The notes below the pieces were generated by a model. The model was not told the DNA's origin and made no database searches. It saw only the letters and a list, made by a program, of their open reading frames with translations. The position numbers and the translations under genes are program-made. Below are positions 2,876 to 62,015 of a DNA stretch of 64,000 nucleotides, piece after piece. Positions within the stretch are counted from its first letter, which is position 1, and each line of letters begins with the position of its first letter. Origin of the DNA: a virus. The DNA lies in IMG/VR virus record IMGVR_UViG_3300035698_019895, positions 1 to 64,000 of that record, one strand, 5' to 3'.

Positions 2876-4414
2876 ATGTCAAGATTTAACACAAGAAACA
2901 CAGAAAAGAATCAAGCAGAAAATTTTGCTGGAGGTGAAGCTTTTAAAGAAACACCCGCCTTAGAATTTATATCCATCCTTTTAACATCCTTTGTACAAGA
3001 CCAGTACTATCGTTCTTCTGACGATACTCTTAAACGATTAAGAGCATTAATTAAGAAAATAAATGACAAGAAATTTGTTGCCAAGGGAGCAATTTATGCC
3101 CGTAATGAATTTGGAATGCGTTCTATAACTCATGTTGTAGGGGGAGAATTAGCTTCTATAGTTAAAGGTGAACCTTGGATGAAAAATTTCTTTGATAAAG
3201 TAGTTCGTAGACCAGATGATATGACAGAAATATTGGCTTATTATCTTAAAGACAGCAAAGAAGACAGCAAAAAGCCTATTCCTAATTCAATGAAAAAAGG
3301 TCTTGCTAAAGCTTTTGACAAATTCAACGAATATCAACTTGCTAAATATAGAAGTGGTAATAAAGATGTATCTCTTATAGATTTAGTTAATTTAGTACAT
3401 CCAACACCTACAAAAGACAATAAAGAAGCATTAGAAAAGTTAGTAAAAGGGGAATTAAAGTCCAAAGACACCTGGGAAGTAAGACAAACACAAGCAGGGC
3501 AAAAGGCAAAGACAGAAGAAGAAAAAACAGAATTAAAGAAGCAAGAATGGATAGATTTAGTTAAAACTAAAAAGATAGGTTATTTTGCATTGCTTCGTAA
3601 TCTAAGAAATATTCTAACTCAAGCACCAGAGGTTCTTGATGAAGCTATAGAAATGTTAAAAGATGAAAAACTTATAAAAAAGTCTTTAGTGTTACCTTTC
3701 AGATTTTATGCAGCCTATAAAGAAATTAAGAGTGTACCTAGCACAAAATCTACTAAGGTTTTAGATGCTCTTTCTCAAGCATTAGATGTCTCTTGTAAGC
3801 ATATTCCAGGATTGAACGGAGATGTAATGATAGGTATAGATAACTCTCATTCTATGAAAAGTAATCAAATGTCAGATAAGAGTAAGATGACTAGATGTGA
3901 TGTTGCTTGTATATTAGCTTGTATGTTACACAAAAGGTCTCCTAACACTATCACTTCAGTGTTTGCAGACGAATTCAAAGTAACAAATTTATCTCCATCT
4001 GCTACAGCATTACAAAATATGCAATCTTTAGAACATGCAGATGTAGGATTGGGATATCAAACTAATGGTTTTAAAGTTGTAGAATATGCAACTAAAAATA
4101 AAATTAAACTAGATTACTTCGTTATATTTACTGATTTACAAATGTATGATGCTGAAGGAGTTAGATATGACAGAACTCCTCCTGCTGACGGTAGAAGTTT
4201 CAAGAAAGAATTAGCTAAATATAAGAAAGAAGTTAATTCTAAAGTAAAAGTATATTCCTTTGATTGTGCTGGTTACGGTACTTTACAAATTCCTCAAGGA
4301 GACTCAAACTCTTATTTAATACCTGGGTTTTCTGATAAGATTTTTGATATAATGGAAGTTTTAGAACAAGACCGAGAAGCTCTTATAAACAAAATAAATG
4401 CAATAGAATTATAA
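2876..4414 (+). CDS. rsr: Ro60/TROVE-domain RNA-binding protein (Rsr) with C-terminal vWA
   Basis: N-terminal NFAGGEAF, YARNEFGMRS, RRPDDMTE, FNEYQLAKY, LVHPTP, TWE, ALLRNLRN, LPFRFY; vWA MIDAS-like IDNSHSM and IFTD; RBS AGGAG. Confidence 0.93.
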   Translation: MSRFNTRNTEKNQAENFAGGEAFKETPALEFISILLTSFVQDQYYRSSDDTLKRLRALIKKINDKKFVAKGAIYARNEFGMRSITHVVGGELASIVKGEPWMKNFFDKVVRRPDDMTEILAYYLKDSKEDSKKPIPNSMKKGLAKAFDKFNEYQLAKYRSGNKDVSLIDLVNLVHPTPTKDNKEALEKLVKGELKSKDTWEVRQTQAGQKAKTEEEKTELKKQEWIDLVKTKKIGYFALLRNLRNILTQAPEVLDEAIEMLKDEKLIKKSLVLPFRFYAAYKEIKSVPSTKSTKVLDALSQALDVSCKHIPGLNGDVMIGIDNSHSMKSNQMSDKSKMTRCDVACILACMLHKRSPNTITSVFADEFKVTNLSPSATALQNMQSLEHADVGLGYQTNGFKVVEYATKNKIKLDYFVIFTDLQMYDAEGVRYDRTPPADGRSFKKELAKYKKEVNSKVKVYSFDCAGYGTLQIPQGDSNSYLIPGFSDKIFDIMEVLEQDREALINKINAIEL

Positions 4415-4425: not shown

Positions 4426-4454
4426 TTGACAAATGAAGAAAAATGGGTTATAAT
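4426..4454 (+). promoter_or_regulatory. consensus sigma-70 promoter upstream of the DNA-modification/replication operon
   Basis: TTGACA-17 nt-TATAAT. Confidence 0.8.
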
Positions 4455-4502: not shown

Positions 4503-5150
4503 ATGAATTTAACACATACTTGTCCGATATGTAATAAAGAACATGAAATGGATTGTACTCCTGAACCTTCTCAACCATGTTCACAATGTAATGTAGGTTT
4601 AGATAAAATTATTGAATTAGTTAGAGACCAATTTCAATATGGTGGAAAGAAGTATGCTCTTAATAAAGAAAGAGAAAGTACTGATGTATTATTTGACAAA
4701 CATGGTAAGAATTGGTTGTTCGGAACTATTGATAAATATACTTTCCGATTCAATAATCTTGCTAGAGAACGAGATTTATTAAAAATATCTTGTTACATGT
4801 ATATATTGTGGTTAAAACGGGGATTTCATATTGATAATAAGAGAGTAATACCTATAGATACTAATATTGAAACTAAGGAGAAACAGTTCCCTGTCTTTAT
4901 AAAAAAATATAAAGAGTTTCATAGAATTAAAATTAAAAATATCTTAATTTCTCCAATTGATGTTATTACTATAGCTATGGGGAATTTTAGTAAAGACACA
5001 TGGGAAGAAATTACTGAAAATGATTTATTTTATGTTTTTTATTGTGCTTATTTAATATGGAATGAAAAATTTGTGGAGGTAACTAATCATGATACAGATA
5101 CTAATAATGAAAAAAAAGAAAACAACTATGGAAAATCAAGAAATAAATAA
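4503..5150 (+). CDS. hypothetical protein; N-terminal Zn finger, possible all-alpha dNTP pyrophosphohydrolase-like domain
   Basis: CPIC..CSQC; QFQYGGKKY ... DLLKISCYMYILW loosely resembles nucleotide-modification-associated domains. Confidence 0.4.
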   Translation: MNLTHTCPICNKEHEMDCTPEPSQPCSQCNVGLDKIIELVRDQFQYGGKKYALNKERESTDVLFDKHGKNWLFGTIDKYTFRFNNLARERDLLKISCYMYILWLKRGFHIDNKRVIPIDTNIETKEKQFPVFIKKYKEFHRIKIKNILISPIDVITIAMGNFSKDTWEEITENDLFYVFYCAYLIWNEKFVEVTNHDTDTNNEKKENNYGKSRNK

Positions 5151-5304
5151 AAGTTCCGACAATACAATTTTAGGCTGGTGCAGTTATTGTAAAGATGCTG
5201 TATATACTGAAAACGACTATATAAAGAAAGATGGACAGCTTTATCATGTAGATTGTTGGAAACAGAAAAATAATTTTGTAGAAGAATTAGAATTTGACGA
5301 GTAA
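5126..5304 (+). CDS. small Zn-binding hypothetical protein
   Basis: ORF track 5089..5304, probable ATG near 5128; CSYC..YHVDC. Confidence 0.5.
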
Positions 5305-5315
5305 AAACAAAGGAG

Positions 5316-5981
5316 TTGAAGATGAAAAATTTTGATTTCAATACTATTCATGATTTTGATGCACATATTTTACAGTCCATTCCTAATTATAATGTTTTAT
5401 TTAATTCTATATTGCGTATAAGCGACTATTTCAAAGATTCCAAAAAAAATATCTATGACATAGGTTGTTCTACTGGTAAACTGTTAAAATATATTAACGA
5501 AGTAGAAAAATATACTGGTAATATGATAGGATTAGATAACAGCAGAAATTTATTACCAGAGAATGCTAGAGAATTTGAAAATATTAAATTTTTAGAGTGG
5601 GATTTAAACAAGCCGTTCTCATTTGAGAATGCTTGTTTAATTTTTTGTATATTTACATTACAATTTTTAAGAAAAGAATCAAGACAAGCAGTTCTAGATA
5701 ATGTATATAAAGGGCTTAATAAAGGTGGAGCGTTCATCATAGCAGAAAAAACTTATGTATCTGATGGGCAATTTCAAGATATATTTACTTTTTCTTACTA
5801 TGATTATAAGAAAGCATCCTTTTCCAACGAAGCTATATTAAACAAAGAAAAAGATTTGAGAACAATACTAAAACCTAACTATTCTCATGAAAATCTAGAA
5901 ATATTGTATAATGCAGGTTTTAGAAAAATCCAAATGTTCTACAAATTCTTCCAATTTGAAGCTTATTTATGTGTAAAATAA
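5316..5981 (+). CDS. cmoA: CmoA-like carboxy-S-adenosylmethionine synthase
   Basis: FDF...FDAHILQSIPNY, DIGCSTG, GLDNS, FTLQFL..R, GGAFIIAEK, K..DLR.IL.P: CmoA signature blocks. Confidence 0.8.
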   Translation: MKMKNFDFNTIHDFDAHILQSIPNYNVLFNSILRISDYFKDSKKNIYDIGCSTGKLLKYINEVEKYTGNMIGLDNSRNLLPENAREFENIKFLEWDLNKPFSFENACLIFCIFTLQFLRKESRQAVLDNVYKGLNKGGAFIIAEKTYVSDGQFQDIFTFSYYDYKKASFSNEAILNKEKDLRTILKPNYSHENLEILYNAGFRKIQMFYKFFQFEAYLCVK

Positions 5982-5990
5982 TGATTATTA

Positions 5991-6079
5991 TACCTTAACG
6001 GGTATAATATAGAGAATGTTAGTGTTACAACGTACCCGAACGGGTATAAAAAAATAAAAAGTGTACCCTAAAGGGTATA
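5991..6079. repeat. three imperfect palindromic 16-mers TACCYnAAnGGGTATA
   Basis: TACCTTAACGGGTATA (5991), TACCCGAACGGGTATA (6033), TACCCTAAAGGGTATA (6064). Confidence 0.85.
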
Positions 6080-6095
6080 AAAAAAGAGTAAAAAT

Positions 6096-6950
6096 ATGGT
6101 TATTTCTAAAAAGTTAAGACAAGATTTAGATAAAATTGTAAAAAGAGAAGTTGCTGGTAAAAAAGTTTGTAGCATGTTATCTGGTGGTATAGATTCATTT
6201 GCAATAACTTATTTAGCTAGTAAATATGCTTCAAAACTAAAATCAGTAGTTGTTACTAATGGTGTAGATGGACAAGATGCAATTTTTGCAGCATTGTGTG
6301 CGAAAGCGATTTGTGCAAAAGGAATAAATGTCTATTTAGATATACTAAAATTTGATGCACAAGATGCTTATAATGTAACTAGAGATTTCTTAAAGAAATT
6401 TCCATGCAAAACTATTGTTAGATTGCAATGTGGTTTAATTACAGAAGTATGTGCAAAATATGCACAAAGTAATGGTTTTGACTCTCTATTATGTGGTGAT
6501 GGTGCTGATGCTGTATTTGGTAGCACTGGTCATATGCGTAGAAAGAGCATAAGACCAGATTTCAATGCTATTAAACGAGAGACTTGCGAAAAGGGCATAT
6601 CAGAGGGTGTTGGGAGCGATTTCGTTGCTATATGTCGCTATTATAGCTTAAAACCGGTACTTCCATACCGGGATGCAGACTTTATAAACAACTATGTAGA
6701 TTTAGATGATAAGATAGTAAATAAGCCAAAAGAAAAACAGATATTACGAAGTGCTTTTGAAAAAGAGCTACCACGAGATTTAGTTTATAGAGAAAGATTA
6801 ACATTGCAAGTGGGAGTAGGAATTAAAGAAAAACATATAGAATTGTTGAGAAACGATTCACCAAAAGGTTATAAGAGTCCTAGATATCTTATAAAGGAGA
6901 TAATAAATGACTTACAAAGTCATCAGTTTGTTTTCGGGTACAGGGGGTAG
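6096..6950 (+). CDS. asparagine synthase C-terminal-like ATP-dependent amide ligase (no glutaminase domain)
   Basis: PP-loop LSGGIDS, GDGADAVFG, LPY.D, KQILR.AF...LP..LV.R. Confidence 0.8.
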   Translation: MVISKKLRQDLDKIVKREVAGKKVCSMLSGGIDSFAITYLASKYASKLKSVVVTNGVDGQDAIFAALCAKAICAKGINVYLDILKFDAQDAYNVTRDFLKKFPCKTIVRLQCGLITEVCAKYAQSNGFDSLLCGDGADAVFGSTGHMRRKSIRPDFNAIKRETCEKGISEGVGSDFVAICRYYSLKPVLPYRDADFINNYVDLDDKIVNKPKEKQILRSAFEKELPRDLVYRERLTLQVGVGIKEKHIELLRNDSPKGYKSPRYLIKEIINDLQSHQFVFGYRG

Positions 6951-8034
6951 TTCGTTAGGGTATCGATTAGCAGGACTTAAAGTTCTTCTTTCTAACGAAT
7001 TTGTTGAAGCCGCATGGAAATGTTATGAAGCTAATTTTCCAGGAACTATTTGTCTTCATGAGGATATTAGAAAGCTAACGGGAGATATCATTCTTTCTAA
7101 AGTCGGATTAAAAAAAGGTGAGCTAGATGTACTTGATGGTTCTCCGCCTTGTGCCTCATTCTCTACAGCAGGAAAAAGAGAGAAAAAATGGGGAACAGTT
7201 ACTAAATATAGTGATGTAGAACAGCGAGTAGATGACTTGCTCTTTGAATATGCCAGAATATTAGGAGAGATACAACCTAAAGTCTTTTTAGTAGAAAATG
7301 TAAAAGGACTAGTCATGGGAGAAGCTAAAAGAGTTTTTGATAAAGCCAAAGAAGAATTTGAAGCAAAAGGTTATATAGTATCTTGTAAACTTCTTAATGC
7401 AAAATATTTTCGAGTTCCACAAAATAGACCCAGAATTATTTTTATTGGTGTCAGAAAAGATTTAGGTGTTCAACCATCTCACCCCAAACCTCAATACGCA
7501 CCTATCCCAATTAAAGAAGTTCTAAAAGACATTGTAAATACACCAAAAGATATTGAAGACTCAAAATATCCAGAACACTACTCTGTTATGAAGTATCTGA
7601 AACAGATGAAGCCTGGAGAATCTGGTTCTGATTATAATGAAAAAGGTTCATATTTTGGTTTAATCAGATTACATTGGGATAAACCTGCTAACACTATCTT
7701 ACAAAGCGACGCAAAACATATCTCTTGTAGTGCAATTCATCCTGAAGAACATAGAAAACTAACAATACCTGAATTAAAGAGGATATCTTCTTTCCCCGAT
7801 GACTTTAAACTACTTGGCGACTACAAACAGAACTGGGAAAGAATAGGCAGAGCTGTGCCTCCAAACATGATGAAAGCAATCGCAGAACATATAAGGTATT
7901 GTATCTTAGATAAAATACACAATATACCAAACGATTATAAACCCTCATACTATGATGAAGAAGCAGTAAAGACTGGACAACTGGGATTTGATTTTGGAGA
8001 TGATTTTAAAAAAGGATTTAAACAATATAAATGA
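6907..8034 (+). CDS. DNA cytosine-C5 methyltransferase family enzyme, probable carboxymethyltransferase
   Basis: Motif I SLFSGTGG, catalytic GSPPC, ENV, PQNRPR; motif X reads IGRAVPP instead of GNAVPP. Confidence 0.9.
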   Translation: MTYKVISLFSGTGGSSLGYRLAGLKVLLSNEFVEAAWKCYEANFPGTICLHEDIRKLTGDIILSKVGLKKGELDVLDGSPPCASFSTAGKREKKWGTVTKYSDVEQRVDDLLFEYARILGEIQPKVFLVENVKGLVMGEAKRVFDKAKEEFEAKGYIVSCKLLNAKYFRVPQNRPRIIFIGVRKDLGVQPSHPKPQYAPIPIKEVLKDIVNTPKDIEDSKYPEHYSVMKYLKQMKPGESGSDYNEKGSYFGLIRLHWDKPANTILQSDAKHISCSAIHPEEHRKLTIPELKRISSFPDDFKLLGDYKQNWERIGRAVPPNMMKAIAEHIRYCILDKIHNIPNDYKPSYYDEEAVKTGQLGFDFGDDFKKGFKQYK

Positions 8035-9699: not shown

Positions 9700-10611
9700 G
9701 TGAAAGAGAAGAGGAGTTATGATGGAAAAACAGATGTTAATGCCAGGATTTGTTACAGAAAAAAAAGAAGAAGCTTATCAAGAAGAAATGCAACAATTAT
9801 GAGCAAAATAATATTTATAGATTGGGGAGTAATAATGTTTCGTTCTATCTTTGCTCATGTTAAAAATAGAAATATGCCTTCCACATATACAGCAATATCA
9901 ATGCTTATAGGTAACATTAAAAAAGTTGGATTAGATAAAGATGATTTAGTAATTATAGCTGCTGATAGTCCTAAAGGGTCTTGGAGAAAAGATGTTGATA
10001 GTTCTTATAAAGCAAATAGAAAAAAAGCAAGAGAACGAGTTCCTATTAATTGGAAAGAACAATTTAGCAGTTTCTGGTCACTTCTCGAAAAAATAGAGAT
10101 GTATACCCCTTTTCATACGATTTCTCTTGACAAATTAGAAGCAGATGATATAATAGCGTATGGTTGTAAGAAATTTAAAGATAAAGAATGTGTAATAGTA
10201 AGTACTGATGCTGACTATGAACAACTATTTATTTATCCTAATGTAAAAATATTTAGTCCAATGTCTAAACATTATAAAACACCAGTAGACCCATATAAAG
10301 TATTGGCTAAAAAAATACAAAAAGAAGCATCAGATAATTTGGTAGCTCCTATATTAAATGAAAAAGATTTTGAAAAAAGAAATAAAATTGTTAACTTGAT
10401 GACATTACCACAAGAAATTGAAAAGCAAATAGATGAACATTTAGTTATTTTTCCAGAAAAAGACTGGTTTCTTTCAGGATTACCTTTTAAATCGTTACAT
10501 AGTAGATTTGAAACTATATATGAAAAAAATAAAGTTGTTGATATAAATAAGAAAAAGCGTAAAAAGAAAATAGAACAACCAACTTTATTTAATATGAAAA
10601 AAATAAAGTAA
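9700..10611 (+). CDS. 5'-3' exonuclease / T4 RNase H-like flap nuclease (probable start MSKIIFID)
   Basis: IIFID, D..KGSWRK....YKANR, LEADDII, VSTDADYEQL. Confidence 0.85.
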   Translation: MKEKRSYDGKTDVNARICYRKKRRSLSRRNATIMSKIIFIDWGVIMFRSIFAHVKNRNMPSTYTAISMLIGNIKKVGLDKDDLVIIAADSPKGSWRKDVDSSYKANRKKARERVPINWKEQFSSFWSLLEKIEMYTPFHTISLDKLEADDIIAYGCKKFKDKECVIVSTDADYEQLFIYPNVKIFSPMSKHYKTPVDPYKVLAKKIQKEASDNLVAPILNEKDFEKRNKIVNLMTLPQEIEKQIDEHLVIFPEKDWFLSGLPFKSLHSRFETIYEKNKVVDINKKKRKKKIEQPTLFNMKKIK

Positions 10612-13618: not shown

Positions 13619-14608
13619 ATGAAGATTAGTGCAACGGTAGGGTTGATTATTGGAGTAGTGTTGGTGATTGTATTTATTATGACATGTGGAATAATAAATA
13701 TACATCCAACAGAGTGTGCAGTAGAAGTTAATAAGTTCAAAGGTAAAGTTATGGACATGCCAAAAGGTGTGGGATATCATCTTTATAATCGATGGGTAAC
13801 TGATATGGTAACATATAAAGTTTCTGCAAGAGCATATCCTGGTGATGTAAAAAGCAGTGAAAAATCATCCAAGTATAATCTCGATTTAAAGACTAATGAT
13901 GGTCAGAACATAGATGTAGATTTGACTATTATTTATGCTTTAAGAACAAACGAAGTTCCGCAATTACATGCCAAAGTAGGTAGAAATTATCAAGATGAAG
14001 TTCTGTTGCCTCAGATTCGTTCAGAAGCAAGATTAGTAGTTGGTAGTTATGAAGCTGAAGACATATATCAAGGTAAAGTGAGAGACGAGATTCAACAAGC
14101 AATTAGAACAAAATTACAGTTAGCTCTCTCAAAATTTCCTGCAATACAAATACAGGATGCTTTACTAAGAAGTTTTTCTTTCAGTAAAGATTTTGAACGA
14201 AAGATTGAGGAAAAGAAATTAGCAGCACAGCAAGTAGAAATCAACAAAAATAAGGCTTTCGCTCAAGAAGAAGAGGCTAAAAGACAGGAAGCAGAAGCTC
14301 GTGGAGAAAAGTTAAAGAAGATTCAGGCAGCAGAAGGTGAAGCTCAATCCAGAAGGATTAATGCTGATGCTGAAAGATATTCTTTAGAAGAAGAAGCGAA
14401 AGGAAAACTCGCTATCTATCAAGCTGATGCAGAAGGAAAGCGTCTTATGGCAAGTGCTTTAGGTGGTGGACATAATGTAGTAGCATTGAAGTTTGCTGAG
14501 AACATACCAGATAAATTAAGAGTATTTGGAGTTCCAATGGGCGAAAATTCTACAAACATTATGGATTTAAACGGAATGTTTAAAGGTATATTTAGTAAAG
14601 TAGAATAA
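13619..14608 (+). CDS. SPFH/prohibitin (band 7) membrane protein
   Basis: N-terminal TM; KTNDGQNIDVDLTIIY; coiled coil with AEGEA repeats. Confidence 0.88.
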   Translation: MKISATVGLIIGVVLVIVFIMTCGIINIHPTECAVEVNKFKGKVMDMPKGVGYHLYNRWVTDMVTYKVSARAYPGDVKSSEKSSKYNLDLKTNDGQNIDVDLTIIYALRTNEVPQLHAKVGRNYQDEVLLPQIRSEARLVVGSYEAEDIYQGKVRDEIQQAIRTKLQLALSKFPAIQIQDALLRSFSFSKDFERKIEEKKLAAQQVEINKNKAFAQEEEAKRQEAEARGEKLKKIQAAEGEAQSRRINADAERYSLEEEAKGKLAIYQADAEGKRLMASALGGGHNVVALKFAENIPDKLRVFGVPMGENSTNIMDLNGMFKGIFSKVE

Positions 14609-15400: not shown

Positions 15401-15874
15401 ATGAACATATATTTAGCTGGTTATATCTCAGGAAAAAAGTTAGATGAATGTTTAGCATGGCGTAAAAAAATAAGACAGTATTTCGATTTAAAACCAAAAT
15501 GGCATGGTGAAATTGCTTTTCTTGACCCATTAAACGGTAAAAAGTTTGGAGAGATAGATGCTGAAGGTTTAAAAAGTAATATTCCAGGTAAAGCTTTTGT
15601 TAAAAGAGATTATAAATGTGTTAAGATAGCAGATTTACTTATAGTAAACTTAAATACTTTTGGAGAATCTAGACCCTTAACAGGAACGATATATGAATTA
15701 GCTTGGGCATGGCTCCATAAGATTCCAGTAATAGTTATTACTACTGATGTAAATTATCTTGAGCATCCATTTATTAAAGATACTGCTTGTATTATAGTGT
15801 CTAGTGTGGAAGAAATTTTGGAAAAAGATTATATAGAATATTATTATAAAGGATTAGTAAGTGCTGAATATTAA
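15401..15874 (+). CDS. nucleoside 2-deoxyribosyltransferase family protein
   Basis: IYLAG, FLDP, RD...V..ADLLIV, GTIYELAWA...KIPVI. Confidence 0.82.
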   Translation: MNIYLAGYISGKKLDECLAWRKKIRQYFDLKPKWHGEIAFLDPLNGKKFGEIDAEGLKSNIPGKAFVKRDYKCVKIADLLIVNLNTFGESRPLTGTIYELAWAWLHKIPVIVITTDVNYLEHPFIKDTACIIVSSVEEILEKDYIEYYYKGLVSAEY

Positions 15875-29306: not shown

Positions 29307-29642
29307 ATGATTAAATCTGTAAACAAACTTTGGGGATATGAAGACAAGCTTATAAATACTGAACTTTATTGTGCTAAAATTCTAGGACTAAAACATGGTT
29401 ATCAATGTTCTCTTCATTATCATAAGAAAAAAGACGAAACATTTTATTGTTTAGATGGTTGTATAAAATTAGAACTAGAAGATGAAGTATTTACTTTAGC
29501 AAAAGGACAACAGGTGAGAATTAGACCTAAACAGAAGCATAGATTTACAGCAATAACTAATACAGCAAAAATATTAGAAGTAAGTACATATCATTCTAAT
29601 AAAGATAGTTGTCGTATTGAAAAATCAAAAGAAATAAAATGA
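29307..29642 (+). CDS. cupin-domain protein (mannose-6-phosphate isomerase-like)
   Basis: K.WG.E, SLHYHKKKDETF, HRF, LEVST. Confidence 0.82.
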   Translation: MIKSVNKLWGYEDKLINTELYCAKILGLKHGYQCSLHYHKKKDETFYCLDGCIKLELEDEVFTLAKGQQVRIRPKQKHRFTAITNTAKILEVSTYHSNKDSCRIEKSKEIK

Positions 29643-31126
29643 AATCTATATATTTAATTAATCCAAAAATAGATTTTCCAACATATTTCGGTTCGGAAAT
29701 ATTAAAAGAATTAAATCTAGATTCAAAAGTACTTGTTTCTGATATAGTTACCCCAACTATAGCAGCATTTGTCCCAAAAGAATTTAATGTTCAAATTTGT
29801 GATGAACGAGTTACTCCGATTGATTTTAATACTAAATCAAAGTATATTGGTATTACAGGTAAAAATGCTCAATATAAACGCATGAAAGAAATTGCTCAAA
29901 AATTTCAAACAAAGGGTAAGACAGTTATTATAGGTGGTCCCTTCGCATCACTTAGTCCAGAAGCTGTTCGTCCTTATTGTGATATTTTAGTAAAAGGAGA
30001 GATAGAGGAAATAGCAGATGAATTATTTTCAGATTTATTACGTGGAGAATGGAAACAAGAATATACTGGGACTCGTCCAAATCCAATAAAATCTCCTATA
30101 CCGAGATGGGATTTATATCCTAATCAAAGAGCAACCACAGGAATGATACAAATTTCAAGAGGATGTCCATTTGATTGTGATTTTTGCGATTTAAAATTAT
30201 ATGCAGGTCGTGGACAAAGACATAAATTAATTGAAGATGTATTAGCAGAACTAGATGTAATATATAAACATGGATATCGTCATATCTTCATAGCAGATGA
30301 TAACTTAACAGCAAATCGTAAATATGTTAAAGAATTAATGCAAGCAATAAAAGAATGGAATGAAAAACTTCCATCAGGATATGTGGGATTTGTTGCTCAA
30401 TTATCTTTAGATGCAGCCAATGACGAAGAATTAGTTAAAATATGTGCTGAAGCTGGACTTACACAAATATATATTGGAATTGAAACGTTAGAACAAAACA
30501 ATTTAGCTAACATTAATAAGTCACAAATTATCAATATAAATATAAAAGAAAAAATATTATTATTTTTAAAATATGGTATTTCTGTTATGGTAGGTTTGAT
30601 TAGTGGTTTTGATTTCGACAATTTAGATGTTTTTGAACAACAATATCAGTTTGCTATGTCATTACCAGTTCCAATTTTTCTTTTTCAAGCATTAATAGCA
30701 TATCCAAATACTCGTATTTTTAATACATTACAAGAACAAAATAGACTTGTTAATAATATATCTACTGAAGATTTGCCTTGGGAAACAAATATAATACCAA
30801 AACAAATGACAAGAAAAGAACTTACTACTGGGATACGAAGATTATTTGAGAGTATATATAGTCCAGAAATGTTCGGCAAACGTTTAACTGCTTTTATTGA
30901 TATTTTAGGTGAAAATAAAAGCTTGACAAAAGTGGAAAAAGATGATAGAATGAAGGTATTAATGTTCTCTGTTATTAAATATATAAGAAAATTAGGTAAA
31001 AAAGAGCAAGAATTATGTCAGACTATTATAAAATTAATTGTTCAAAAACCAAGAACAGGATATTATCTAATACCGATATTAATTCATTATGCTCAAATCA
31101 GTTATATGTATAGAGAGGGAAAATAA
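29639..31126 (+). CDS. B12-binding radical SAM protein
   Basis: N-terminal cobalamin-binding region (IGGPFAS, GE.E), SRGCPFDCDFC, DDN, IGIET, YPNT. Confidence 0.9.
   Translation: MKSIYLINPKIDFPTYFGSEILKELNLDSKVLVSDIVTPTIAAFVPKEFNVQICDERVTPIDFNTKSKYIGITGKNAQYKRMKEIAQKFQTKGKTVIIGGPFASLSPEAVRPYCDILVKGEIEEIADELFSDLLRGEWKQEYTGTRPNPIKSPIPRWDLYPNQRATTGMIQISRGCPFDCDFCDLKLYAGRGQRHKLIEDVLAELDVIYKHGYRHIFIADDNLTANRKYVKELMQAIKEWNEKLPSGYVGFVAQLSLDAANDEELVKICAEAGLTQIYIGIETLEQNNLANINKSQIININIKEKILLFLKYGISVMVGLISGFDFDNLDVFEQQYQFAMSLPVPIFLFQALIAYPNTRIFNTLQEQNRLVNNISTEDLPWETNIIPKQMTRKELTTGIRRLFESIYSPEMFGKRLTAFIDILGENKSLTKVEKDDRMKVLMFSVIKYIRKLGKKEQELCQTIIKLIVQKPRTGYYLIPILIHYAQISYMYREGK
30923..30951 (+). promoter_or_regulatory. 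internal sigma-70-type promoter within the 3' end of the radical SAM gene
   Basis: TTGACA-17 nt-TAGAAT with extended TG. Confidence 0.55.
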
Positions 31127-37383: not shown

Positions 37384-37836
37384 ATGAATTATCAAGAAGC
37401 ATTAGTATTATTTGAATCAGAAGATAATATTTTAGATTTATTGGAAAAATTACAACCGATTTTTGAGAGAGTTAATCATTACGGAACTTTATTTCAGAAT
37501 CATCAAATTTCAATGAATTCAGAAGAATGTAAAAAAGCATTAGATGAATTAACAGGTTTATATATGTATCTTAATCCAATTTACTCTGTTGCTTTATCTG
37601 TTAAACAGAATAAAGAAGATGAATATTATGTTCAAAAACGAAAAGAAATGATAAAAGAGTTAAAAGGAAAAAGAATTATATCAGCTCCTATTGATAGAGA
37701 AGCGTCTGCTCATGTAGGTAAACATCGAATAATTAGAAATTTATTAGAAAAATATACAGAATCATGCGATAAAGCAATTTCATCTTGTCAATCCATACTA
37801 AAATATATGGGAGAGGAAATAAAGTTAAATAAATGA
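37384..37836 (+). CDS. helical protein, possible UvsY-like recombination mediator
   Basis: Position after recA; helical composition; ISS.QS.LK ending. Confidence 0.4.
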   Translation: MNYQEALVLFESEDNILDLLEKLQPIFERVNHYGTLFQNHQISMNSEECKKALDELTGLYMYLNPIYSVALSVKQNKEDEYYVQKRKEMIKELKGKRIISAPIDREASAHVGKHRIIRNLLEKYTESCDKAISSCQSILKYMGEEIKLNK

Positions 37837-39968
37837 AGCTATTAAATATTGCTAATACTAAAAGATTAGTTCGCTTATTTTGTAGAGACGAAAACGGAAA
37901 ACAAATAATTATAAATGATAACTCGTTCTATCCGTTCTATTATGAACCATCTCCACAAGGTAAATTCATAGGATATGATGGAGTAAAATTGAGAAAAGTA
38001 TTTTGTTCTGAACCAAAAGAAATTCCTCTTCAACGAAGCAACAAAAGCTATAGTAGTGATATTATTTTTGTTAAGAATTACATGATTAGCAAAATAGATA
38101 AATTGGATAAAACTGTTGTGAAATATCTATTTATAGATATAGAAGTTCTTAATGAGGATGGTATATTTCCTGAACCAAAAGATGCATTATATCCTGTAAG
38201 TTGTATAACTATATACAATTCCTTGCATAAAAACATACAAACTTGGTGGCTTAAAGATTTTAGAAATGAAGAAGAGATGTTAGATAGTTTTATTGAATAT
38301 GTAGCATTAGAAAAACCAGACATTTTATTAGCTTGGAACATTAATTTTGATTACGATTATTTATATAATAGAGTGCCTAATTTTGCTAAAAGAATCAGTC
38401 CTATAGGAAGAGGAAGATTTCAAAGTAGAAAAGAATTATTCTATCCAACAGGTATAAGTATTGTAGATTATCTCGGTCTATTTAGAAAAGTATTTAAAGC
38501 AGAACAATCATATAAACTAGATGATATAGCTCAAAAACATCTAAAAGAGAAAGAATGGGGAGAAACTGATTTTGGGTTAAATGAGCATGTTAGAGAGAAG
38601 AATATCAATGATGTCAAGAGACTAGTCAAATTAGAAGAAAAGTATCGTCTAATGCCCTATTATGATGAAATACGCCGGTTATCTAAGTGCCAGTGGGAAG
38701 ACTTATACTATAATTCGAGAATTGTAGAATGTTTACTGTTAGAAGAAGCAAAACTTAAAAATATAGTGCTTCCTTCAAGACATGAAAGAACAACAGAAAA
38801 AGTGGCATTTAAAGGAGCAACAAGAGAAGCAGCAGAGAATGGCGTTGTTTATGAAGTCGGGAAATTCGACTTAGGTTCAGCTTATCCTTCAATGATATAC
38901 AACTTCTGTTTAGATACAATGAATAAAAACGATAACAAAGAAGGTATAGAAGTTGATGGTATGTATTATAAACAAAATGAAGATGCTTTATTACCTTCTA
39001 TAATTAAAAAAATATTAATAATAAAAGATGATTTAAAAAGAGCAAAAAAGATAGACCCTTCTCTAGATAGTCAGTATGAAGCAATAAAAGCCATTGTAAA
39101 TTCTTGTTATGGAGTAATGGGAAATGAATATTTTAGATTATATGACCCAGATATAGCCGCCTCAACTACATATTTAGTTAGAGATTTATTAATGTATTGC
39201 AAAAATAAATTAGAAGAAAAAGGTCATAAGATTATATACTGGGATACAGATAGTTTATTTTTGAAAGGTAAAGATGATATCAGCAAACATCTTAATCAAC
39301 TTATTCAAGATTGGGGTAAGAAATATGGAAAAGAAAAAATTGATTTATTTTTTGGATATGAAGGATTTTTTAAGAGTTTATTTATCTTAGGAAAATGCCA
39401 CTATTATGGTTATATAGATGGTAAGAAAGACCCTGAAATAAAAGGCGTTGAAATAAAAAGAAGCAGTTCTTCTAAATACGAAGCATATTTTCAGAGAGAA
39501 TTATTAGAAAAAGTAATTAATAGAGAAACAAAAGAAAATATATTAGATTGGGTAGATACAGAGAGAGAAAGAATCAAAACACTACCTGTAGAAGAAATAG
39601 CTTTTCCATGTAAAATATCTGGAAAGAAATATAAAACAGTTGTAACTAGAAAAGATGGAAAAACATTCAATAAGAAACCTCCAATATTTGTTAGAGCATA
39701 TGAGAATACACAAAAGATACTTTCTAATTTTAAATTAGAAATAGGAGAATTATTTTATTATATATATGTTAACGCATTAACTACTAACTGTGATGTGTTA
39801 GCATTAACCAAAACTAATAAAGATTTTATTGATTGGAAGGAAAATATTAATTGGAAAGAAATAATAAGAAGAAATATAATATCTAAAGCAAAACCAGTAT
39901 TCGAAGCAATGAACTGGGATGCTGACATTTCAGAAACTGATAACAAACAATTAACATTTAAATTTTAG
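37833..39968 (+). CDS. polB: family B DNA polymerase
   Basis: Exo DIE, WN..FD, YKLD.IA; motif A DLGSAYPS, motif B K...NS.YG, motif C YWDTDS. Confidence 0.95.
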   Translation: MKLLNIANTKRLVRLFCRDENGKQIIINDNSFYPFYYEPSPQGKFIGYDGVKLRKVFCSEPKEIPLQRSNKSYSSDIIFVKNYMISKIDKLDKTVVKYLFIDIEVLNEDGIFPEPKDALYPVSCITIYNSLHKNIQTWWLKDFRNEEEMLDSFIEYVALEKPDILLAWNINFDYDYLYNRVPNFAKRISPIGRGRFQSRKELFYPTGISIVDYLGLFRKVFKAEQSYKLDDIAQKHLKEKEWGETDFGLNEHVREKNINDVKRLVKLEEKYRLMPYYDEIRRLSKCQWEDLYYNSRIVECLLLEEAKLKNIVLPSRHERTTEKVAFKGATREAAENGVVYEVGKFDLGSAYPSMIYNFCLDTMNKNDNKEGIEVDGMYYKQNEDALLPSIIKKILIIKDDLKRAKKIDPSLDSQYEAIKAIVNSCYGVMGNEYFRLYDPDIAASTTYLVRDLLMYCKNKLEEKGHKIIYWDTDSLFLKGKDDISKHLNQLIQDWGKKYGKEKIDLFFGYEGFFKSLFILGKCHYYGYIDGKKDPEIKGVEIKRSSSSKYEAYFQRELLEKVINRETKENILDWVDTERERIKTLPVEEIAFPCKISGKKYKTVVTRKDGKTFNKKPPIFVRAYENTQKILSNFKLEIGELFYYIYVNALTTNCDVLALTKTNKDFIDWKENINWKEIIRRNIISKAKPVFEAMNWDADISETDNKQLTFKF

Positions 39969-40540: not shown

Positions 40541-42805
40541 ATGGCTTTGACTAAAAACGCTAAAAATTTATTAGAACAACGCTATTGTCATTCTGATGAA
40601 ACATATAAAGATGTATATCCTAGAGTAGCAGGTGTTTTATCTTTAGGAGATACAAGATTTGAAAAAAAGTTGCGAAAAGCCATGATGGATGGTATATTTT
40701 TGCCTAATTCTCCTTGTTTACGAAATGCTGGTATTAAAAAAGGTATGCTTCATGCATGTTTTGTTCTTCCTATTGATGATGATATGGAAAGTATTACAGA
40801 TACTATTAAAAATATGATGAATATTTTTAAACATGGAGGAGGAGTTGGTATCAATTTCAGTAAACTAAGACCGAAAGATGCAGAATTATCTGGAGGAGGA
40901 ACTTCCAGTGGAGTAGTGTCTTTTATGGGCTTATTTAATACAGCTACTGAAGTAGTTAAACAAGGGGGGTTCAGACGAGGAGCTTTGATGGGAGTTTTGA
41001 ATTTTGAACACGCAGAAATAATGGAATTCATCAGAAGCAAACTTACTGGTAAACTTACTAATTTTAATATATCTGTTTTAGTTAGTAATAAATTTATGGA
41101 ACAAGTTGAAAAAGGAGAAATTATAGAACTTAAAAATCCTCAAGATGATAAAATTTGGGGAACAATTAATGCTAAAACTATTTTTGATGTTTTATGCTTT
41201 TCAGCATGGAACAGTGGTGACCCAGGATTTTTATTTTATGATAGAATAAATAAAGATAATATGTTATTTCCTAAAATCAAGATAAAGACAACTAATCCTT
41301 GTTTCACAGGAGATACTGAAATAGAAACTCCTCATGGTAAAATAGCTTTTAAAGATTTTAAAATGAAATCTGTTCCAGTATATTGTTACGATGGGAAGAA
41401 AATTAATATTAGCTGGATGAGAAACATTCGAAAAACAGGAATTCAACAAGAGGTTTGGAAATTAACTTTAGATAATAAGAAAGAAATAAAAGCTACTCCA
41501 AATCATAAATTTATGTTGAGAAGTGGAGAATATGTAGAACTTAAAGATTTAAAAATTGGCAGTAGTTTGATGCCTTTTTATAGATATAAAAGAAATTCTA
41601 AAGGATATAATCAAATAGCATTGAATAATGGGAAACATATAGGAGAAGCTCAACTAGTTTGTGAATGGTTTAATGGACGAAAAATGAAAAAAGGAGAATG
41701 TGTTCATCATAAAGATGAAGATAAGCAAAATAATAATCCTTTTAATTTAGAATTTAAAAAATCTGGTAATCATAATTCTGAACATATGAAGGGAGATAAT
41801 AATCCTTCAAGAAGATTTCCTGAAAGAAATCCTATGAAACTGTATCCTGATATGTTTAAAGGTGAAAAGAATCCAATGTTTGGTCATAAACATAGTAAGA
41901 AAACTAAAAAGAAAATAAGCGAATCACAGTTAGTAAGATTACATAATCATAAAGTTAAGAAGATAGAATTTTACGGTTATGAAGATGTTTATTGTGGAAC
42001 GGTGGATGCTTATCATAATTTTGTTTTAGAAGCCGGAGTTGTTGTTTCAAATTGTGGCGAGGTTCCTTTACCAAACTATGGAGCATGTTGTTTAGGTTCT
42101 ATAAATATTAGTAAATTAGTAAAATATAATAAGTTTGATTTTGATGCGTTTGGTAAATATGTAGAATTAGCTATAAGAGCATTAAGAAATAACAATGCTA
42201 TCTCTTGGTATCCTTTACCAGAGATAACTAAGATAATGAAAGAACTAGACCCTATAGGTGTAGGTATAATGGGATTTGCAGATTGTTTAATTAAATTGGA
42301 AATGATGTATGATAGCGAAGAGACTCTTAAATTTATAGATGAACTGGGTAAAATATATAAAGATGTAACAGATAGATTAGCAAAAAAATGTTTTTGGAAA
42401 AGAATAATCGCACCTACTGGTTCATTAAGTATATTAGCAGATTGTAGTAGTGGAATAGAACCTGTTTTCGAAGCTGCATTTGAAAGACATCTTACCGTAG
42501 GAATAATAGAAGAAAAAAGAGAATTGTATAAGTCTAAATATTTAAGAACAGCACATCAAATAAGTCCTGAATGGCATTTAAAGATTCAGGCTCAATGGCA
42601 AAAATGGTTAGACGGAAGTATAAGTAAGACTATCAATTTACCTAATAGTGCTTCTGTAGATGATATAAAGAAAATATATATAGATGCTTGGAAAATGGGA
42701 TGTAAAGGAATAACTATTTTTAGAGACGGTAGTAAAGAAGGAGTATTGAGAACAAAAACAGCTTCTGTTAGAGGAAAGTGTGAAGGAGATAGTTGTCAAC
42801 TTTAA
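40541..42805 (+). CDS. nrdJ: class II (adenosylcobalamin-dependent) ribonucleotide reductase with intein
   Basis: FLPNSP, ACFVL, GGGVG..FS.LRP, QGG.RRGA, NFNISV, TNP|CGE, APTG, SSGIEP, SKTIN, KG.TIFRDGS; no small-subunit gene in the window. Confidence 0.9.
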   Translation: MALTKNAKNLLEQRYCHSDETYKDVYPRVAGVLSLGDTRFEKKLRKAMMDGIFLPNSPCLRNAGIKKGMLHACFVLPIDDDMESITDTIKNMMNIFKHGGGVGINFSKLRPKDAELSGGGTSSGVVSFMGLFNTATEVVKQGGFRRGALMGVLNFEHAEIMEFIRSKLTGKLTNFNISVLVSNKFMEQVEKGEIIELKNPQDDKIWGTINAKTIFDVLCFSAWNSGDPGFLFYDRINKDNMLFPKIKIKTTNPCFTGDTEIETPHGKIAFKDFKMKSVPVYCYDGKKINISWMRNIRKTGIQQEVWKLTLDNKKEIKATPNHKFMLRSGEYVELKDLKIGSSLMPFYRYKRNSKGYNQIALNNGKHIGEAQLVCEWFNGRKMKKGECVHHKDEDKQNNNPFNLEFKKSGNHNSEHMKGDNNPSRRFPERNPMKLYPDMFKGEKNPMFGHKHSKKTKKKISESQLVRLHNHKVKKIEFYGYEDVYCGTVDAYHNFVLEAGVVVSNCGEVPLPNYGACCLGSINISKLVKYNKFDFDAFGKYVELAIRALRNNNAISWYPLPEITKIMKELDPIGVGIMGFADCLIKLEMMYDSEETLKFIDELGKIYKDVTDRLAKKCFWKRIIAPTGSLSILADCSSGIEPVFEAAFERHLTVGIIEEKRELYKSKYLRTAHQISPEWHLKIQAQWQKWLDGSISKTINLPNSASVDDIKKIYIDAWKMGCKGITIFRDGSKEGVLRTKTASVRGKCEGDSCQL
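41300..42052 (+). mobile_element. intein (251 aa) carrying an HNH homing endonuclease and NUMOD3-like motif
   Basis: Begins CFTGDT; block B ATPNHKF; HNH VHHKDEDKQNN...NL; NPMFGHKHS; ends HNFVLEAGVVVSN before +1 Cys; inserted at TNP|CGE. Confidence 0.92.
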
Positions 42806-56211: not shown

Positions 56212-56298
56212 GCGTGGTTGCGATAGCGGCAATTCGACCTGCCTGTAGAGCAGGTGCTCTTCGGAGCTTCGATGGTTCGAGTCCATCACTACGCACCA
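56212..56298 (+). tRNA. tRNA-Tyr(GTA)
   Basis: GCGTGGT/ACTACGC-A-CCA; CCTGC-CTGTAGA-GCAGG; long variable arm; GGTTCGAGTCC. Confidence 0.9.
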
Positions 56299-56302
56299 TT
56301 AT

Positions 56303-56372
56303 TGGGAGGTAGTTTAATTAAAACGCCAATCGTAAGTGGAAATGTAACGTCAAATCGTTTCCCTCCCAGCCA
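56303..56372 (+). ncRNA. degenerate tRNA-like element
   Basis: Perfect acceptor TGGGAGG/CCTCCCA-G-CCA, but truncated anticodon arm and non-canonical T loop. Confidence 0.55.
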
Positions 56373-56449
56373 GCGAGTGTAACAGAATTGGTATATGTAC
56401 TCGGCTTAGACCCGAGGTTTTAGAGGTTCGACTCCTCTCACTCGTACCA
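56373..56449 (+). tRNA. tRNA-Leu(TAG), short variable loop
   Basis: GCGAGTG/CACTCGT-A-CCA; CTCGG-CTTAGAC-CCGAG. Confidence 0.9.
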
Positions 56450-56463
56450 AATGGAGAAAATAA

Positions 56464-56739
56464 ATGAGTAGAGAATATTTGCTGAAAATAGATTTTGAAA
56501 AACACTATAAGAAAAAAGAATTAAGAGACTTTTTTATTAAATGGTGTGGTAAAGACCAGATATTTAAAATAGAGCCTGACTATGTAGTTGTAGAAATGGG
56601 ATGCAGTAGTGGTTTAGATGCTGATGAATATATGCAAGAATTATATACTCAATTACAAGAACAAGGTTTTAAACTAGAAAAAGAAGATATGCTATGTTGG
56701 AGTTTACATCCTGACAGAGCAATAAGTTTGGCGGAGTAG
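56464..56739 (+). CDS. hypothetical protein; its stop codon lies inside the tRNA-Leu(TAA) gene
   Basis: ORF track; GGAG RBS. Confidence 0.6.
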   Translation: MSREYLLKIDFEKHYKKKELRDFFIKWCGKDQIFKIEPDYVVVEMGCSSGLDADEYMQELYTQLQEQGFKLEKEDMLCWSLHPDRAISLAE

Positions 56740-56806
56740 TCCAACTGGCAGAGGCAACGGTCTTAAAAGCCGTAAAGTGAGGGTTCGAATCCCTCTTCCG
56801 CTACCA
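56730..56806 (+). tRNA. tRNA-Leu(TAA), short variable loop
   Basis: GGCGGAG/TTCCGCT-A-CCA; ACGGT-CTTAAAA-GCCGT; GAGGG-TTCGAAT-CCCTC. Confidence 0.9.
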
Positions 56807-56969
56807 TTATTAAGTCTGAGAAAGAGATAAAAAAATGTTATTAATTTTGGGAATAATATTAGTTATTTTAAGTTATTTTATGGCTTATTGGTCTGCATTA
56901 AAATATATTATCGGAGCTATAGGAACTGGTTTGATAATTGGATATTTGTTAAATTTTTTATAATAATAT

Positions 56970-57045
56970 GTGCGAGTGATGCAACGGCAGACATGCTTGT
57001 TTCAAAAACAAGCTTTTATAGGTTCGAGTCCTATCTCGCATACCA
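56970..57045 (+). tRNA. tRNA-Leu(CAA), short variable loop
   Basis: GTGCGAG/CTCGCAT-A-CCA; CTTGT-TTCAAAA-ACAAG. Confidence 0.88.
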
Positions 57046-58330
57046 ATAATGTAAAAAGATTTTGAATAGTAATTTTTTAACAGGGAAGGTAAAAGATGAA
57101 AACAATAAACAGTGAAACCCTTGTCGGTGGACGTTATACAACTCATGATTGTGAAGTAAATATTTTTGAAATTCTGAAAGATGTTGATGCAAGAATATCA
57201 AAATATGGACTCGAAATTGTTCTAAAAGATTATAGTGGCATTGACTATGATAAAGATATATATGGTCATCCTTCTTTCGATTTTTGGATAGAGAAAAGTG
57301 ATAAAAAATTATGAATAAAACAGTTGTTAATTTTATAAGAACACAAATAAAAGAAGGATTGGCACAATTAGAAGATGAGAATAGATTACTTTTTAATCGC
57401 ATGTATTCTCATGACAATTTAGAAAGACCAGTAAATGAAGTTGTAGATGATATGCCAGAAGAAAAACTTAATTGGGCTTTAACTCAAGTAGAGAATAGTT
57501 TGAAGAAAAAGGAGAAATAATGATTGAAGGAAATTGTTATTATTGTGACAAACCTGTAAATAATCTTGCAGGTAATCCAAATGAATGGGGAATACCATTA
57601 TGTCATGAAGATGAACCTGGAAAAGTAAAAACTCATCATATTGGATGTGTTAGCGAAAGGTTAAGAGAGAATAAGAAAATGAAAAAAGCTCTTGCTTGGG
57701 CTGATGAAGAATTATCTCGTTTAAAGACAGGTAAAGAAAGTCAATTAGTAGAAGAAATAACCAAACTTCAAGAAGAAAAGAAAAAGTTTGACAAAATATA
57801 TGAAGAAGAAATGAAAACTGTGGGAGGAATTCTTAATGATAATGAAGAACTTCAAAAGAAAAATGAAGCATTAACGACAGAATTACATAGAGATTGTAAA
57901 CTTACTTGTTGGGAAATGCAACAACTTCGTAAAACTATAGAACCTTTTAATAATAGTATGAAACAAAATGAAGAATTGAAAGATTGTTTAAAAGAAGCAG
58001 TTGACTTAATGGAAGATATTATTAAAGGAAAATATGAACCAGACAGTTTCACTACTCAACCATGGAAAAAGATTTTAATGATAGAAGAAGAATCTAAATG
58101 AAAGAAGCTATTTTAAAAGTATTACAAGAATTTAATGAAGGAAAATGGGGATATTATATTAAACCAATTGATAATAATACAAATATGATAATGTATATCT
58201 ATGATGAAAATGGGATAAAAGAAACCAATACAAAAGAATGGATGAAAAAACAAGGATTGAATCCAGAAAAAATAGATTTTGGTAAAGTGATTGAAGAATA
58301 TAAACGAGTAGGGATAATAACGGAAATATA

Positions 58331-58822
58331 ATGAAAATAGGTTTAGACTTTCACGGAGTAATTGATAAATATCCTAATTTATTTAGAATAATAACTAGTG
58401 GATTCAATATCACTGATGGACGTTGGATAAAGAATGTTGAAGTTCATATAATTACTGGATGTAGAAAAAAAGATGTAGAACAATTCTTACAAGACCATGA
58501 TATTTATTATACTCATGTTTATTCTTTAACTGATGAATTTCTAAAACACAAAGTACCTTATAAAATAGATGAAAATGGAAATCCCTCTTTTAAAGAAGCA
58601 TTATGGAATACAGCTAAAAGTTTATATTGTGCTAGTCATGATATAGATATAATGATAGATGATTCAGAGATTTACGGTCAATATTTTGTTACTCCTTATA
58701 TATTATTTAAAGAAATAAAATCTGACTTTATTCCAAAAGAAATACAAGAAGGATTAGAAGATGCTAAAAAAGGTAAAGTAATAAGAGTAAAAAATATAAA
58801 GAAATTTTTGAGAGATTTATAA
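58331..58822 (+). CDS. HAD-like (5'-nucleotidase-type) protein
   Basis: IGLDFHGVI, IITG, K...C....ID..IDDS. Confidence 0.72.
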   Translation: MKIGLDFHGVIDKYPNLFRIITSGFNITDGRWIKNVEVHIITGCRKKDVEQFLQDHDIYYTHVYSLTDEFLKHKVPYKIDENGNPSFKEALWNTAKSLYCASHDIDIMIDDSEIYGQYFVTPYILFKEIKSDFIPKEIQEGLEDAKKGKVIRVKNIKKFLRDL

Positions 58823-59183
58823 AATGAAGAAAAGAAAAAGATTAAGAACATATGAAGTATGGTATGAACCTGACCCTATGCAGGATAGTATAGAAGTAAA
58901 AGCATTTTCTACAAGAGGTGCTAAGAAAATTGCTATGGAACAAGAAGACCTTGATGAATATCAGATAGAAAGTGTAAATTTAAAAAGGACTAGGAGAAGA
59001 TAATGGCAAGACCAATAGAACCAACTCCTATATTATATGGTGAAGATGCAAAGAGATTATTAAGAGATGTTGCAGAAGTAAATAAAAAATTAGAAGACCC
59101 TATATATAGAAAAAAAGCAAAAGCTCATTTAGACTATTGTGAACAGCTTTATTTAAAGTTTTTTAGGAAACTAAAAACTTCCA

Positions 59184-59274
59184 GGAAGGGCCATCCGATA
59201 GCTGGCGACGGATGCTGTCTTGAAAACAGTTAGCTGTAACAGGCGTATAGGTTCGACCCCTATCCCTTCCGCCA
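59184..59274 (+). tRNA. tRNA-Ser(TGA)
   Basis: GGAAGGG/CCCTTCC-G-CCA; GCTGT-CTTGAAA-ACAGT; long variable arm. Confidence 0.9.
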
Positions 59275-59351
59275 ATCCCTGTAGCCCAATCGGATAGGGC
59301 ATCAGATTTCTAATCTGAACACTATAGGTTCAAATCCTATCAGGGATGCCA
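59275..59351 (+). tRNA. tRNA-Arg(TCT)
   Basis: ATCCCTG/CAGGGAT-G-CCA; TCAGA-TTTCTAA-TCTGA. Confidence 0.92.
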
Positions 59352-62005: not shown

Positions 62006-62015
62006 AGAGAGTATT

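Follow-up and report, generated by a model that had tools for sequence, protein, structure and literature searches.

The first 64 kb of a linear, 86,490-bp virus record (IMG/VR IMGVR_UViG_3300035698_019895), the stretch analyzed here and referred to as the window, very likely carries a CmoA-CmoY-CmoX module for DNA hypermodification. The predicted module consists of three adjacent open reading frames (ORFs) on the + strand, located at 5316-5981 (221 aa), 6096-6950 (284 aa), and 6907-8034 (375 aa), which encode homologues of the carboxy-S-adenosylmethionine (Cx-SAM) synthase CmoA, the ATP-dependent amide ligase CmoY, and the DNA cytosine C5-carboxymethyltransferase CmoX, respectively. The initial annotation of this locus had described a CmoA-like enzyme, a glutaminase-less ligase, and a C5 transferase encoded side by side, which was confirmed by both the ORF list and the family matches in Pfam, NCBIfam, and PHROGs. 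Its doubt about the novelty of the pathway was also justified, as the system has been in print since December 2025 (PMC12783734). With the core system already published, the window brings no new principle. It does widen the range of the CmoA-CmoX-CmoY system, which now includes a salt-lake phage of low GC content whose replisome is of the bacterial type, and the points particular to this member are the amine used by the ligase, the target sequence, and a possible tether of CmoX to the sliding clamp.

In the published system, CmoA, CmoX, and CmoY of the Synechococcus phage S-B43 make 5-carboxymethylcytosine (5cxmC), which is in turn converted to a glycine amide (Yang et al., Nat Commun 2025; PMC12783734). 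SpCmoA converts S-adenosylmethionine (SAM) and prephenate into Cx-SAM. SpCmoX, a C5-methyltransferase homologue whose wild-type form accepts Cx-SAM as its sole cofactor, forms 5cxmC at GC sites, and SpCmoY, an asparagine synthetase homologue, joins glycine to the carboxyl group with ATP. The Arg350 of SpCmoX contacts the carboxymethyl group at the position where M.HhaI has Asn304, and an active-site Glu and Arg contact the N4 and O2 of the cytosine. The same work counted 5,615 CmoX, 4,257 CmoA, and 2,251 ligases in phage data, with the ligases forming several clusters, some of which had “distinct active site residues” and amines that were not known (PMC12783734). The cassette of the window had the same gene order, cmoA-cmoY-cmoX, as that of S-B43, and its products were similar in size to the 231, 271, and 372 aa of S-B43. 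The pairwise identities were 35% for CmoA, 27% for the ligase (E 6e-17), and 43% for CmoX. Both cassettes are placed among replication genes, both ligases have the PP-loop and no glutaminase domain, and both CmoX proteins have SPPC and the cofactor-binding Arg. The pathway proposed in the initial annotation, from Cx-SAM through 5cxmC to an amide, was supported, since it has been shown for this homologous cassette of the same order (PMC12783734).

Sequence comparison placed the transferase (6907-8034) closest to SpCmoX. It matched PF00145 at 1.9e-64, and its top match among solved structures was SpCmoX (8yf3; E 2.9e-73, 43% identity), followed by M.HaeIII at 4.9e-34. The catalytic Cys82 (7150-7152) is the last residue of GSPPC (residues 78-82), which aligned to the GSPPC of SpCmoX (S95-C98). 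The motif X sequence ERIGRAVPP aligned to ERVGRMVPP of 8yf3, with R315 (7849-7851) on R350 of SpCmoX, whereas M.HaeIII has IGNAVP; this confirmed the earlier reading of motif X as carrying an Arg. Among five aligned CmoX proteins (the window, two metagenome relatives, S-B43, and Streptomyces phage TurkishDelight), the residues of GSPPC, E130-N-V, Q172-x-R174-x-R176, and G-R-x-V-P-P with R315 were invariant. Among the best 120 of 5,594 relatives at E <= 1e-30 (8,000 scored), SPPC was present in 116, while motif X contained Arg in 104 and Asn in none by a first pattern (16 unparsed) and Arg in 102 by a tighter pattern (18 unparsed). The catalytic parts of the window protein and SpCmoX were identical at 96/185 and 34/59 positions. 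A basic residue in place of the motif-X Asn also enables the engineered M.MpeI N374K, a C5 methyltransferase, to use Cx-SAM, as far as it is cited in PMC12783734. The engineered enzyme has Lys and a CG target, whereas the CmoX of the window is a natural protein with Arg and is accompanied by its own putative Cx-SAM synthase and follow-up ligase.

The CmoA homologue (5316-5981) matched the CmoA equivalog model TIGR00740 at 1.1e-34 and 120.2 bits over residues 6-221 of 221, below the cut-off of 193.3 bits. This shortfall need not count against the protein, since the proven SpCmoA scored 115.6 bits and was also below the cut-off, which thus excludes genuine phage CmoA enzymes and is not informative for them. 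The best PDB matches were those of E. coli CmoA (4iwn and 4gek, 3e-25), and the Methyltransf_25, _31, _11, and _12 families were all matched above their cut-offs, indicating a class I methyltransferase core. The residues of D48-x-G50-x-x-T53-G54 were invariant in seven aligned phage homologues. The start codon is likelier to be the ATG at 5322 (219 aa) than the listed TTG at 5316 (221 aa), because the Shine-Dalgarno sequence AAGGAG (5310-5315) lies 6 nt upstream of the ATG and abuts the TTG.

The ligase (6096-6950) belonged to the Asn_synthase family PF00733 (2.3e-20) and aligned only to residues 209-458 of AsnB, which corresponds to the C-terminal domain of asparagine synthetase alone, without the glutaminase domain. 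Its PP-loop was found at S29-G-G-I-D-S34. The AlphaFold2 model of the protein had a predicted local distance difference test (pLDDT) score of 95.7, and the best Foldseek match of the model was AsnB (1ct9; template modeling (TM) score 0.80), followed by the synthetase domains of beta-lactam synthetase and human ASNS. With AsnB (1CT9) and beta-lactam synthetase (1MC1) it shared the fold (TM 0.80 and 0.76), the PP-loop, and the Lys in E-K-x-I-L-R. It differed from them in the absence of the N-terminal glutaminase domain and in the presumed acyl substrate, a DNA base. In a word-based search across 5.8 billion proteins (1,679 candidates), a small subfamily of nine proteins emerged at E <= 1e-5, all at least 48% identical, while phmmer over 1.84 billion representatives found one match at E <= 1e-30, 12 at E <= 1e-10, and 547 at E <= 1e-3. 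The family of SpCmoY was larger, with 468 or more members at E <= 1e-10, and hhalign related the two families with a probability of 99.2% at 24% identity.

A maximum-likelihood tree of 64 rows was built from the shared domain only, with the Shimodaira-Hasegawa-like approximate likelihood ratio test (SH-aLRT) as the only support; one row was dropped as it had no phmmer match. In this tree, the subfamily of the window (support 100) joined the SpCmoY family together with other stand-alone ligases that adjoin cmoA and cmoX in the loci L007 and L008 (SH-aLRT 97; long branches). This clade of stand-alone ligases was apart from the 41 AsnB-like or glutaminase-bearing rows, including gp124 of TurkishDelight. 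Column comparison showed that the two families shared the PP-loop, C112, N-K-P at 209-211, the invariant K214, and L-Q at 237-238. Both were also without two Arg residues found in most of the 41 AsnB-like rows, one at position 175 (93% of rows) and one at 188 (80%), and the residues conserved in those rows at 139 and 144 were likewise replaced in the ligase of the window. A role as a 5cxmC ligase is thus very probable for this protein.

Several observations weighed against this assignment of the cassette. At 27% identity, the ligase probably falls outside the cluster of SpCmoY at the threshold of about 30% used in PMC12783734, and its next relatives beyond the subfamily were at most 32% identical. 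The tree was a quick one with long branches. The two families also differed at positions that each conserves: D135 of the window subfamily corresponded to I/L in the SpCmoY family, TIVRLQC to KKTHFEC, R234 to H, K244 to D, and H247 to F. In CmoX, the variable region between motifs VIII and IX, where the target is recognized, was identical to that of SpCmoX at only 25/86 residues (29%), and the palindrome GCGC was under-represented in the genome (3 seen, about 18 expected), contrary to a blanket protection of GC. In CmoA, the Arg199 that binds the carboxyl of Cx-SAM in E. coli (PMC4482062) aligned to E178 rather than to an Arg (pairwise HMMER, position counted from the printed alignment). The nearby segment K177-E-K-x-L-R182 was common to SpCmoA, with K177, L181, and R182 invariant in all seven phage homologues, and because this segment was kept throughout, R182 is a candidate that may take over the carboxyl-binding role of Arg199. 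The available part of PMC7496830 contained nothing on CmoA residues.

Among these differences, those of the ligase bear directly on its amine. The sequence T-G-H-M-R-R-K-S of the window ligase corresponded to S-K-K-A-V-L-H in the SpCmoY family and included a basic cluster, H/D-M-R-R-K-S at 146-151, of which M147 to S151 were invariant in all nine members of the subfamily. Glycine cannot be assumed as the amine, because the two families differ at many positions that each of them conserves; the initial annotation had not settled on an amine donor, and this caution was borne out by the separate subfamily of the ligase. An α-amino acid such as glycine is a plausible amine, though at less than an even chance; some other amine is only slightly less plausible. 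Free ammonia, the option placed first in the initial annotation, which would make the final base the primary amide 5-carbamoylmethylcytosine instead of a glycine amide, is rather unlikely. This last route would leave the remaining pathway unchanged, and it agreed with the absence of a glutaminase domain from the ligase and from the rest of the 86.5-kb record, a provisional negative given a completeness of about 60%. It also agreed with the acidic D135, which was present in 9/9 members at the position of E348 in the G-E-G motif of AsnB, and with the glutaminase-domain matches in 9/10 of the best relatives checked outside the subfamily, which count against the assignment of the ligase as well. 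Ammonia has been proposed as the amine for a glutaminase-bearing cluster of ligases (PMC12783734). Against this, the tree grouped the subfamily with the glutaminase-less clade of the glycine ligase, and the basic cluster at 146-151, where the SpCmoY family has S-K-K, fits an amine bearing a carboxylate or the DNA backbone.

Two further explanations would remove one of the enzymes from the pathway. It is improbable that the asparagine synthetase-like protein amidates or ligates a peptide or small molecule instead of DNA, which would then stay at 5cxmC. The remoteness of the subfamily from the proven SpCmoY would allow this, but cmoY overlaps cmoX by 44 nt in the window and in the related locus L004, cmoY was next to cmoA in 3/3 contigs of close relatives, and the loss of the AsnB-like residues at 175 and 188 was common to the SpCmoY family. 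Less probable still is that the transferase is an ordinary SAM-dependent methyltransferase producing 5-methylcytosine while the CmoA-like protein serves elsewhere, for example in the modification of phage tRNA. The window does contain 11 tRNA genes in three groups (56212-62255), the known cellular role of CmoA is in the formation of uridine 5-oxyacetic acid (cmo5U) in tRNA (PMC4482062), and the CmoA score was below the NCBIfam cut-off. However, the proven SpCmoA was below it too, no match to CmoB was found in the record (provisional, at about 60% completeness), and the motif-X Arg was the same as in SpCmoX, whose wild type took only Cx-SAM. In addition, the three genes were adjacent or overlapping, and their linkage recurred in relatives. 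The hypermodification module as first described is the reading followed below.

By homology with the published enzymes, the reaction would proceed in three steps. CmoA would convert SAM and host prephenate to Cx-SAM. CmoX would then flip out a cytosine, and Cys82 would attack C6, so that the carboxymethyl group is moved to C5 while the carboxylate of the cofactor is held by Arg315, the residue that replaces the usual Asn of motif X; the product would be 5cxmC at a short sequence. Finally, the ligase would adenylate the carboxylate of 5cxmC with ATP bound at the PP-loop and join it to an amine to give the amide. The likely benefit would be the shielding of the phage DNA from host nucleases. The added feature of this member would be the docking of the CmoX tail on the phage beta clamp, by which new DNA would be modified at the fork. 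The authors of PMC12783734 left “alternative amine substrates” open, and the rare subfamily of the ligase is well suited as a candidate for using one of these.

The target sequence could not be read from the protein, as the initial annotation had anticipated. A GC target was not assumed for CmoX because of the 25/86 identity in its target-recognition region, which also sets it apart from the S-B43 enzyme. With GC as the target, the modification would affect 15% of all cytosines. The observed to expected ratios of the palindromes in the genome were 0.96 for AGCT, 0.82 for TGCA, 0.67 for GGCC, and 0.16 for GCGC, a mixed picture that points to no particular target. GATC was entirely absent: dinucleotide shuffles predicted 162 sites for the window and a Markov model about 230 for the 86.5-kb record, and neither stretch contained any. 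This absence points to strong selection by a host nuclease that cuts at GATC, outside the cover of the cytosine modification. CGCG was also absent from the record, where about 8 were expected, and the CpG odds were 0.47. A second C5 methyltransferase or an N6/N4 methyltransferase was not found in the 86.5-kb record, with the same provision of about 60% completeness.

The CmoX of the window differed from SpCmoX in a C-terminal tail of 38 residues (338-375; 7918-8031), and its close relatives likewise extended about 38 residues or more past the end of SpCmoX. The tail was the least confident part of the model, with a mean pLDDT of 69 for the block 351-360 and 50 for the block 361-370, compared with 91-98 for the neighboring core. 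Within the tail, residues 358-363 of 375 (7978-7995) read QLGFDF and form a candidate motif for binding the beta clamp. The review PMC9690074 gives QL(S/D)LF, usually C-terminal, as the consensus for binding of the bacterial beta clamp, and reports that Dnmt1 carries a motif for binding proliferating cell nuclear antigen (PCNA). In common with these clients, CmoX had a short Q-L-x-hydrophobic-x-hydrophobic peptide in a flexible C-terminal tail. In contrast to the beta-clamp clients in the same source, QLGFDF had aromatic residues and was located 12 residues from the end, not at the end.

The same motif was found on the polymerase of the phage itself, and the clamp gene was in the same genome. 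The family-B DNA polymerase (711 aa; 37833-39968, + strand) ended in the six residues QLTFKF (39948-39965). A DnaN-type clamp of 384 aa, with PF00712 and PF02768 in one ORF, was encoded at 75811-76965 of the record, outside the window, and a homologue of a clamp-loader subunit (DNA_pol3_delta2/AAA) at 532-1581 on the + strand. The phage thus pairs a bacterial-type clamp system with a B-family polymerase. Among 143 ORFs of at least 60 aa on the + strand of the record (26,235 residues), QLxFxF occurred three times against 0.13 expected, and two of the three, in CmoX and the family-B polymerase, were within 25 residues of the C-terminus, a number of C-terminal occurrences that was not reached in any of 2,000 shuffles. 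A looser pattern was present in the last 30 residues of 7/143 ORFs (shuffled mean 1.1; 2/2,000 shuffles reached 7), including a FEN-like 5'-3' exonuclease (9700-10611, + strand), a candidate clamp client with QPTLF 11 residues from its C-terminus. The C-terminal Q-F-V-F-G-Y of the ligase had been considered as a clamp motif and was dropped, since it was kept in only 3/9 members of the subfamily and failed the looser pattern.

The relatives of CmoX showed a similar feature. Tails of at least 25 residues were found in 34 of the 102 parsed relatives among the best 120 of 5,594, and 26 of these 34 tails contained Q-x-x-[LFIMV]-x-[LFIMV] or Q-x-x-[LFIM]-[LFIM] (shuffled mean 5.5, maximum 15 in 1,000). 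L-[FILM] formed the last two residues of 22/34 tails (shuffled mean 0.7, maximum 5), several of which ended in Q-T-S-L-F. Two points told against the clamp link: the tailed relatives are kin, so that the shuffles overstate the support, and the looser motif was also present in four ORFs without a known link to DNA. A scan of viral contigs with the alignment of tailed CmoX proteins confirmed 533/585 stretches as relatives, of which 80 loci were kept; only L015 (61%, on a 5.3-kb contig) exceeded 50% identity, and the scan was of no help on the clamp question. Docking of CmoX on the phage's own beta clamp is a tentative proposal, somewhat short of an even chance. Modification may be coupled to replication, because CmoX and the polymerase share QLxFxF and the clamp is phage-encoded. 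The combined case, in which CmoX is a clamp client writing 5cxmC at the fork and the ligase adds an amine other than glycine to give an undescribed base, is doubtful.

If true, the docking of CmoX on the beta clamp would be the counterpart in a prokaryotic virus of Dnmt1 on PCNA. The tether suggests, from sequence alone, how every new strand could be modified in time, and would bear on how post-replicative modification of phage DNA keeps pace with replication, as well as on the use of these enzymes as tools. The main text of PMC12783734 does not mention the clamp, C-terminal, or replication, and literature searches, at the level of titles and the openings of abstracts, found no paper on a bacterial or phage DNA methyltransferase binding the beta clamp.

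The cmoY-like and cmoX ORFs overlapped by 44 nt, which suggests that they are translated together, and cmoX began 926 nt after the end of cmoA with cmoY as the sole gene in between. A sigma-70-like promoter, TTGACA-17-TATAAT (4426-4454, + strand), matched the consensus at 12/12 positions upstream of orf215, orf71, and cmoA and is a possible operon promoter by this consensus match only; the region contained 12 promoter-like sites, fewer than the shuffle mean of 22.1. Unlike the S-B43 cassette, that of the window had a 114-nt gap between cmoA and cmoY with three palindromes of the form TACCY-N4-GGGTATAA (5991-6080, + strand). The three exact matches on the + strand and a minus-strand match with one mismatch at the first copy gave a total of four, against 0.13 expected. 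The element had no further copy in the 86.5-kb record and was absent from the related loci L004-L008, where the corresponding gap was 3 nt in L004 and 46 nt in L005 by the listed ORFs. On this distribution of the motif, the element is specific to this phage. As RNA, the gap folded better than its shuffles (z -3.4), and the palindromes may act as an operator or form hairpins.

Related loci preserved parts of this arrangement. L004 contained cmoA-cmoY-cmoX with the same 44-nt overlap of cmoY and cmoX, L005 contained TROVE-orf215-orf71-cmoA-cmoY, and L006 contained orf215-orf71-cmoA-cmoY. With the single ligase protein as the query, no related locus was found in viral contigs; the alignment of the ligase subfamily found one distant locus there and five in metagenome contigs, three of them close. 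The two ORFs before cmoA (4503-5304), orf215 (215 aa) and orf71 (71 aa), both with Cys-x-x-Cys pairs, occupied the same place in L005 and L006 at 48-56% identity and are possible further members of the cassette. Just upstream (2876-4414), the window encoded a vWA-domain protein of the Ro60/TROVE type, which adjoined the cassette in L005 too (55% identity). The cassette of Streptomyces phage TurkishDelight (L002, 87982-93606) was of the glutaminase type with a different gene order, ParB-ParB-CmoX-like-glutaminase-bearing asparagine synthetase-like ligase-CmoA-like. ParB is frequently linked to CmoX (PMC12783734), and no match to it was found in the 86.5-kb record, itself only about 60% complete.

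The owner of the cassette is an uncultured low-GC salt-lake phage, whereas S-B43 is a T4-like cyanophage. The G+C content of the record was 29.3%, its completeness was about 60% by the CheckV estimate, so that the absence of genes from it is provisional, and nearly all of its genes were on the + strand. One salt-lake metagenome run contained 0.80 of the words of the cassette and may represent the source sample, and four runs contained 0.23-0.40. In four salt-lake runs, identical short contigs matched the cassette together with diverged relatives, with gaps in the cover. No RNA run with words of the cassette was among the matches listed. A megablast search with 25 kb against the collection of named phages gave no match, and hence no near relative there. 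PHROGs and Pfam gave no family for orf215, orf71, orf109, and other neighbors, and the sole match of orf145 in them was a family of unknown function. Elsewhere in the window, a nucleoside 2-deoxyribosyltransferase was matched weakly, below the cut-off, at 15401-15874, and an SPFH/Band 7 protein was encoded at 13619-14608. A B12-binding radical SAM protein with DUF4070 was found at 29639-31126, and the large subunit of ribonucleotide reductase (40541-42805) was split by an intein with HNH and NUMOD3 endonuclease motifs.

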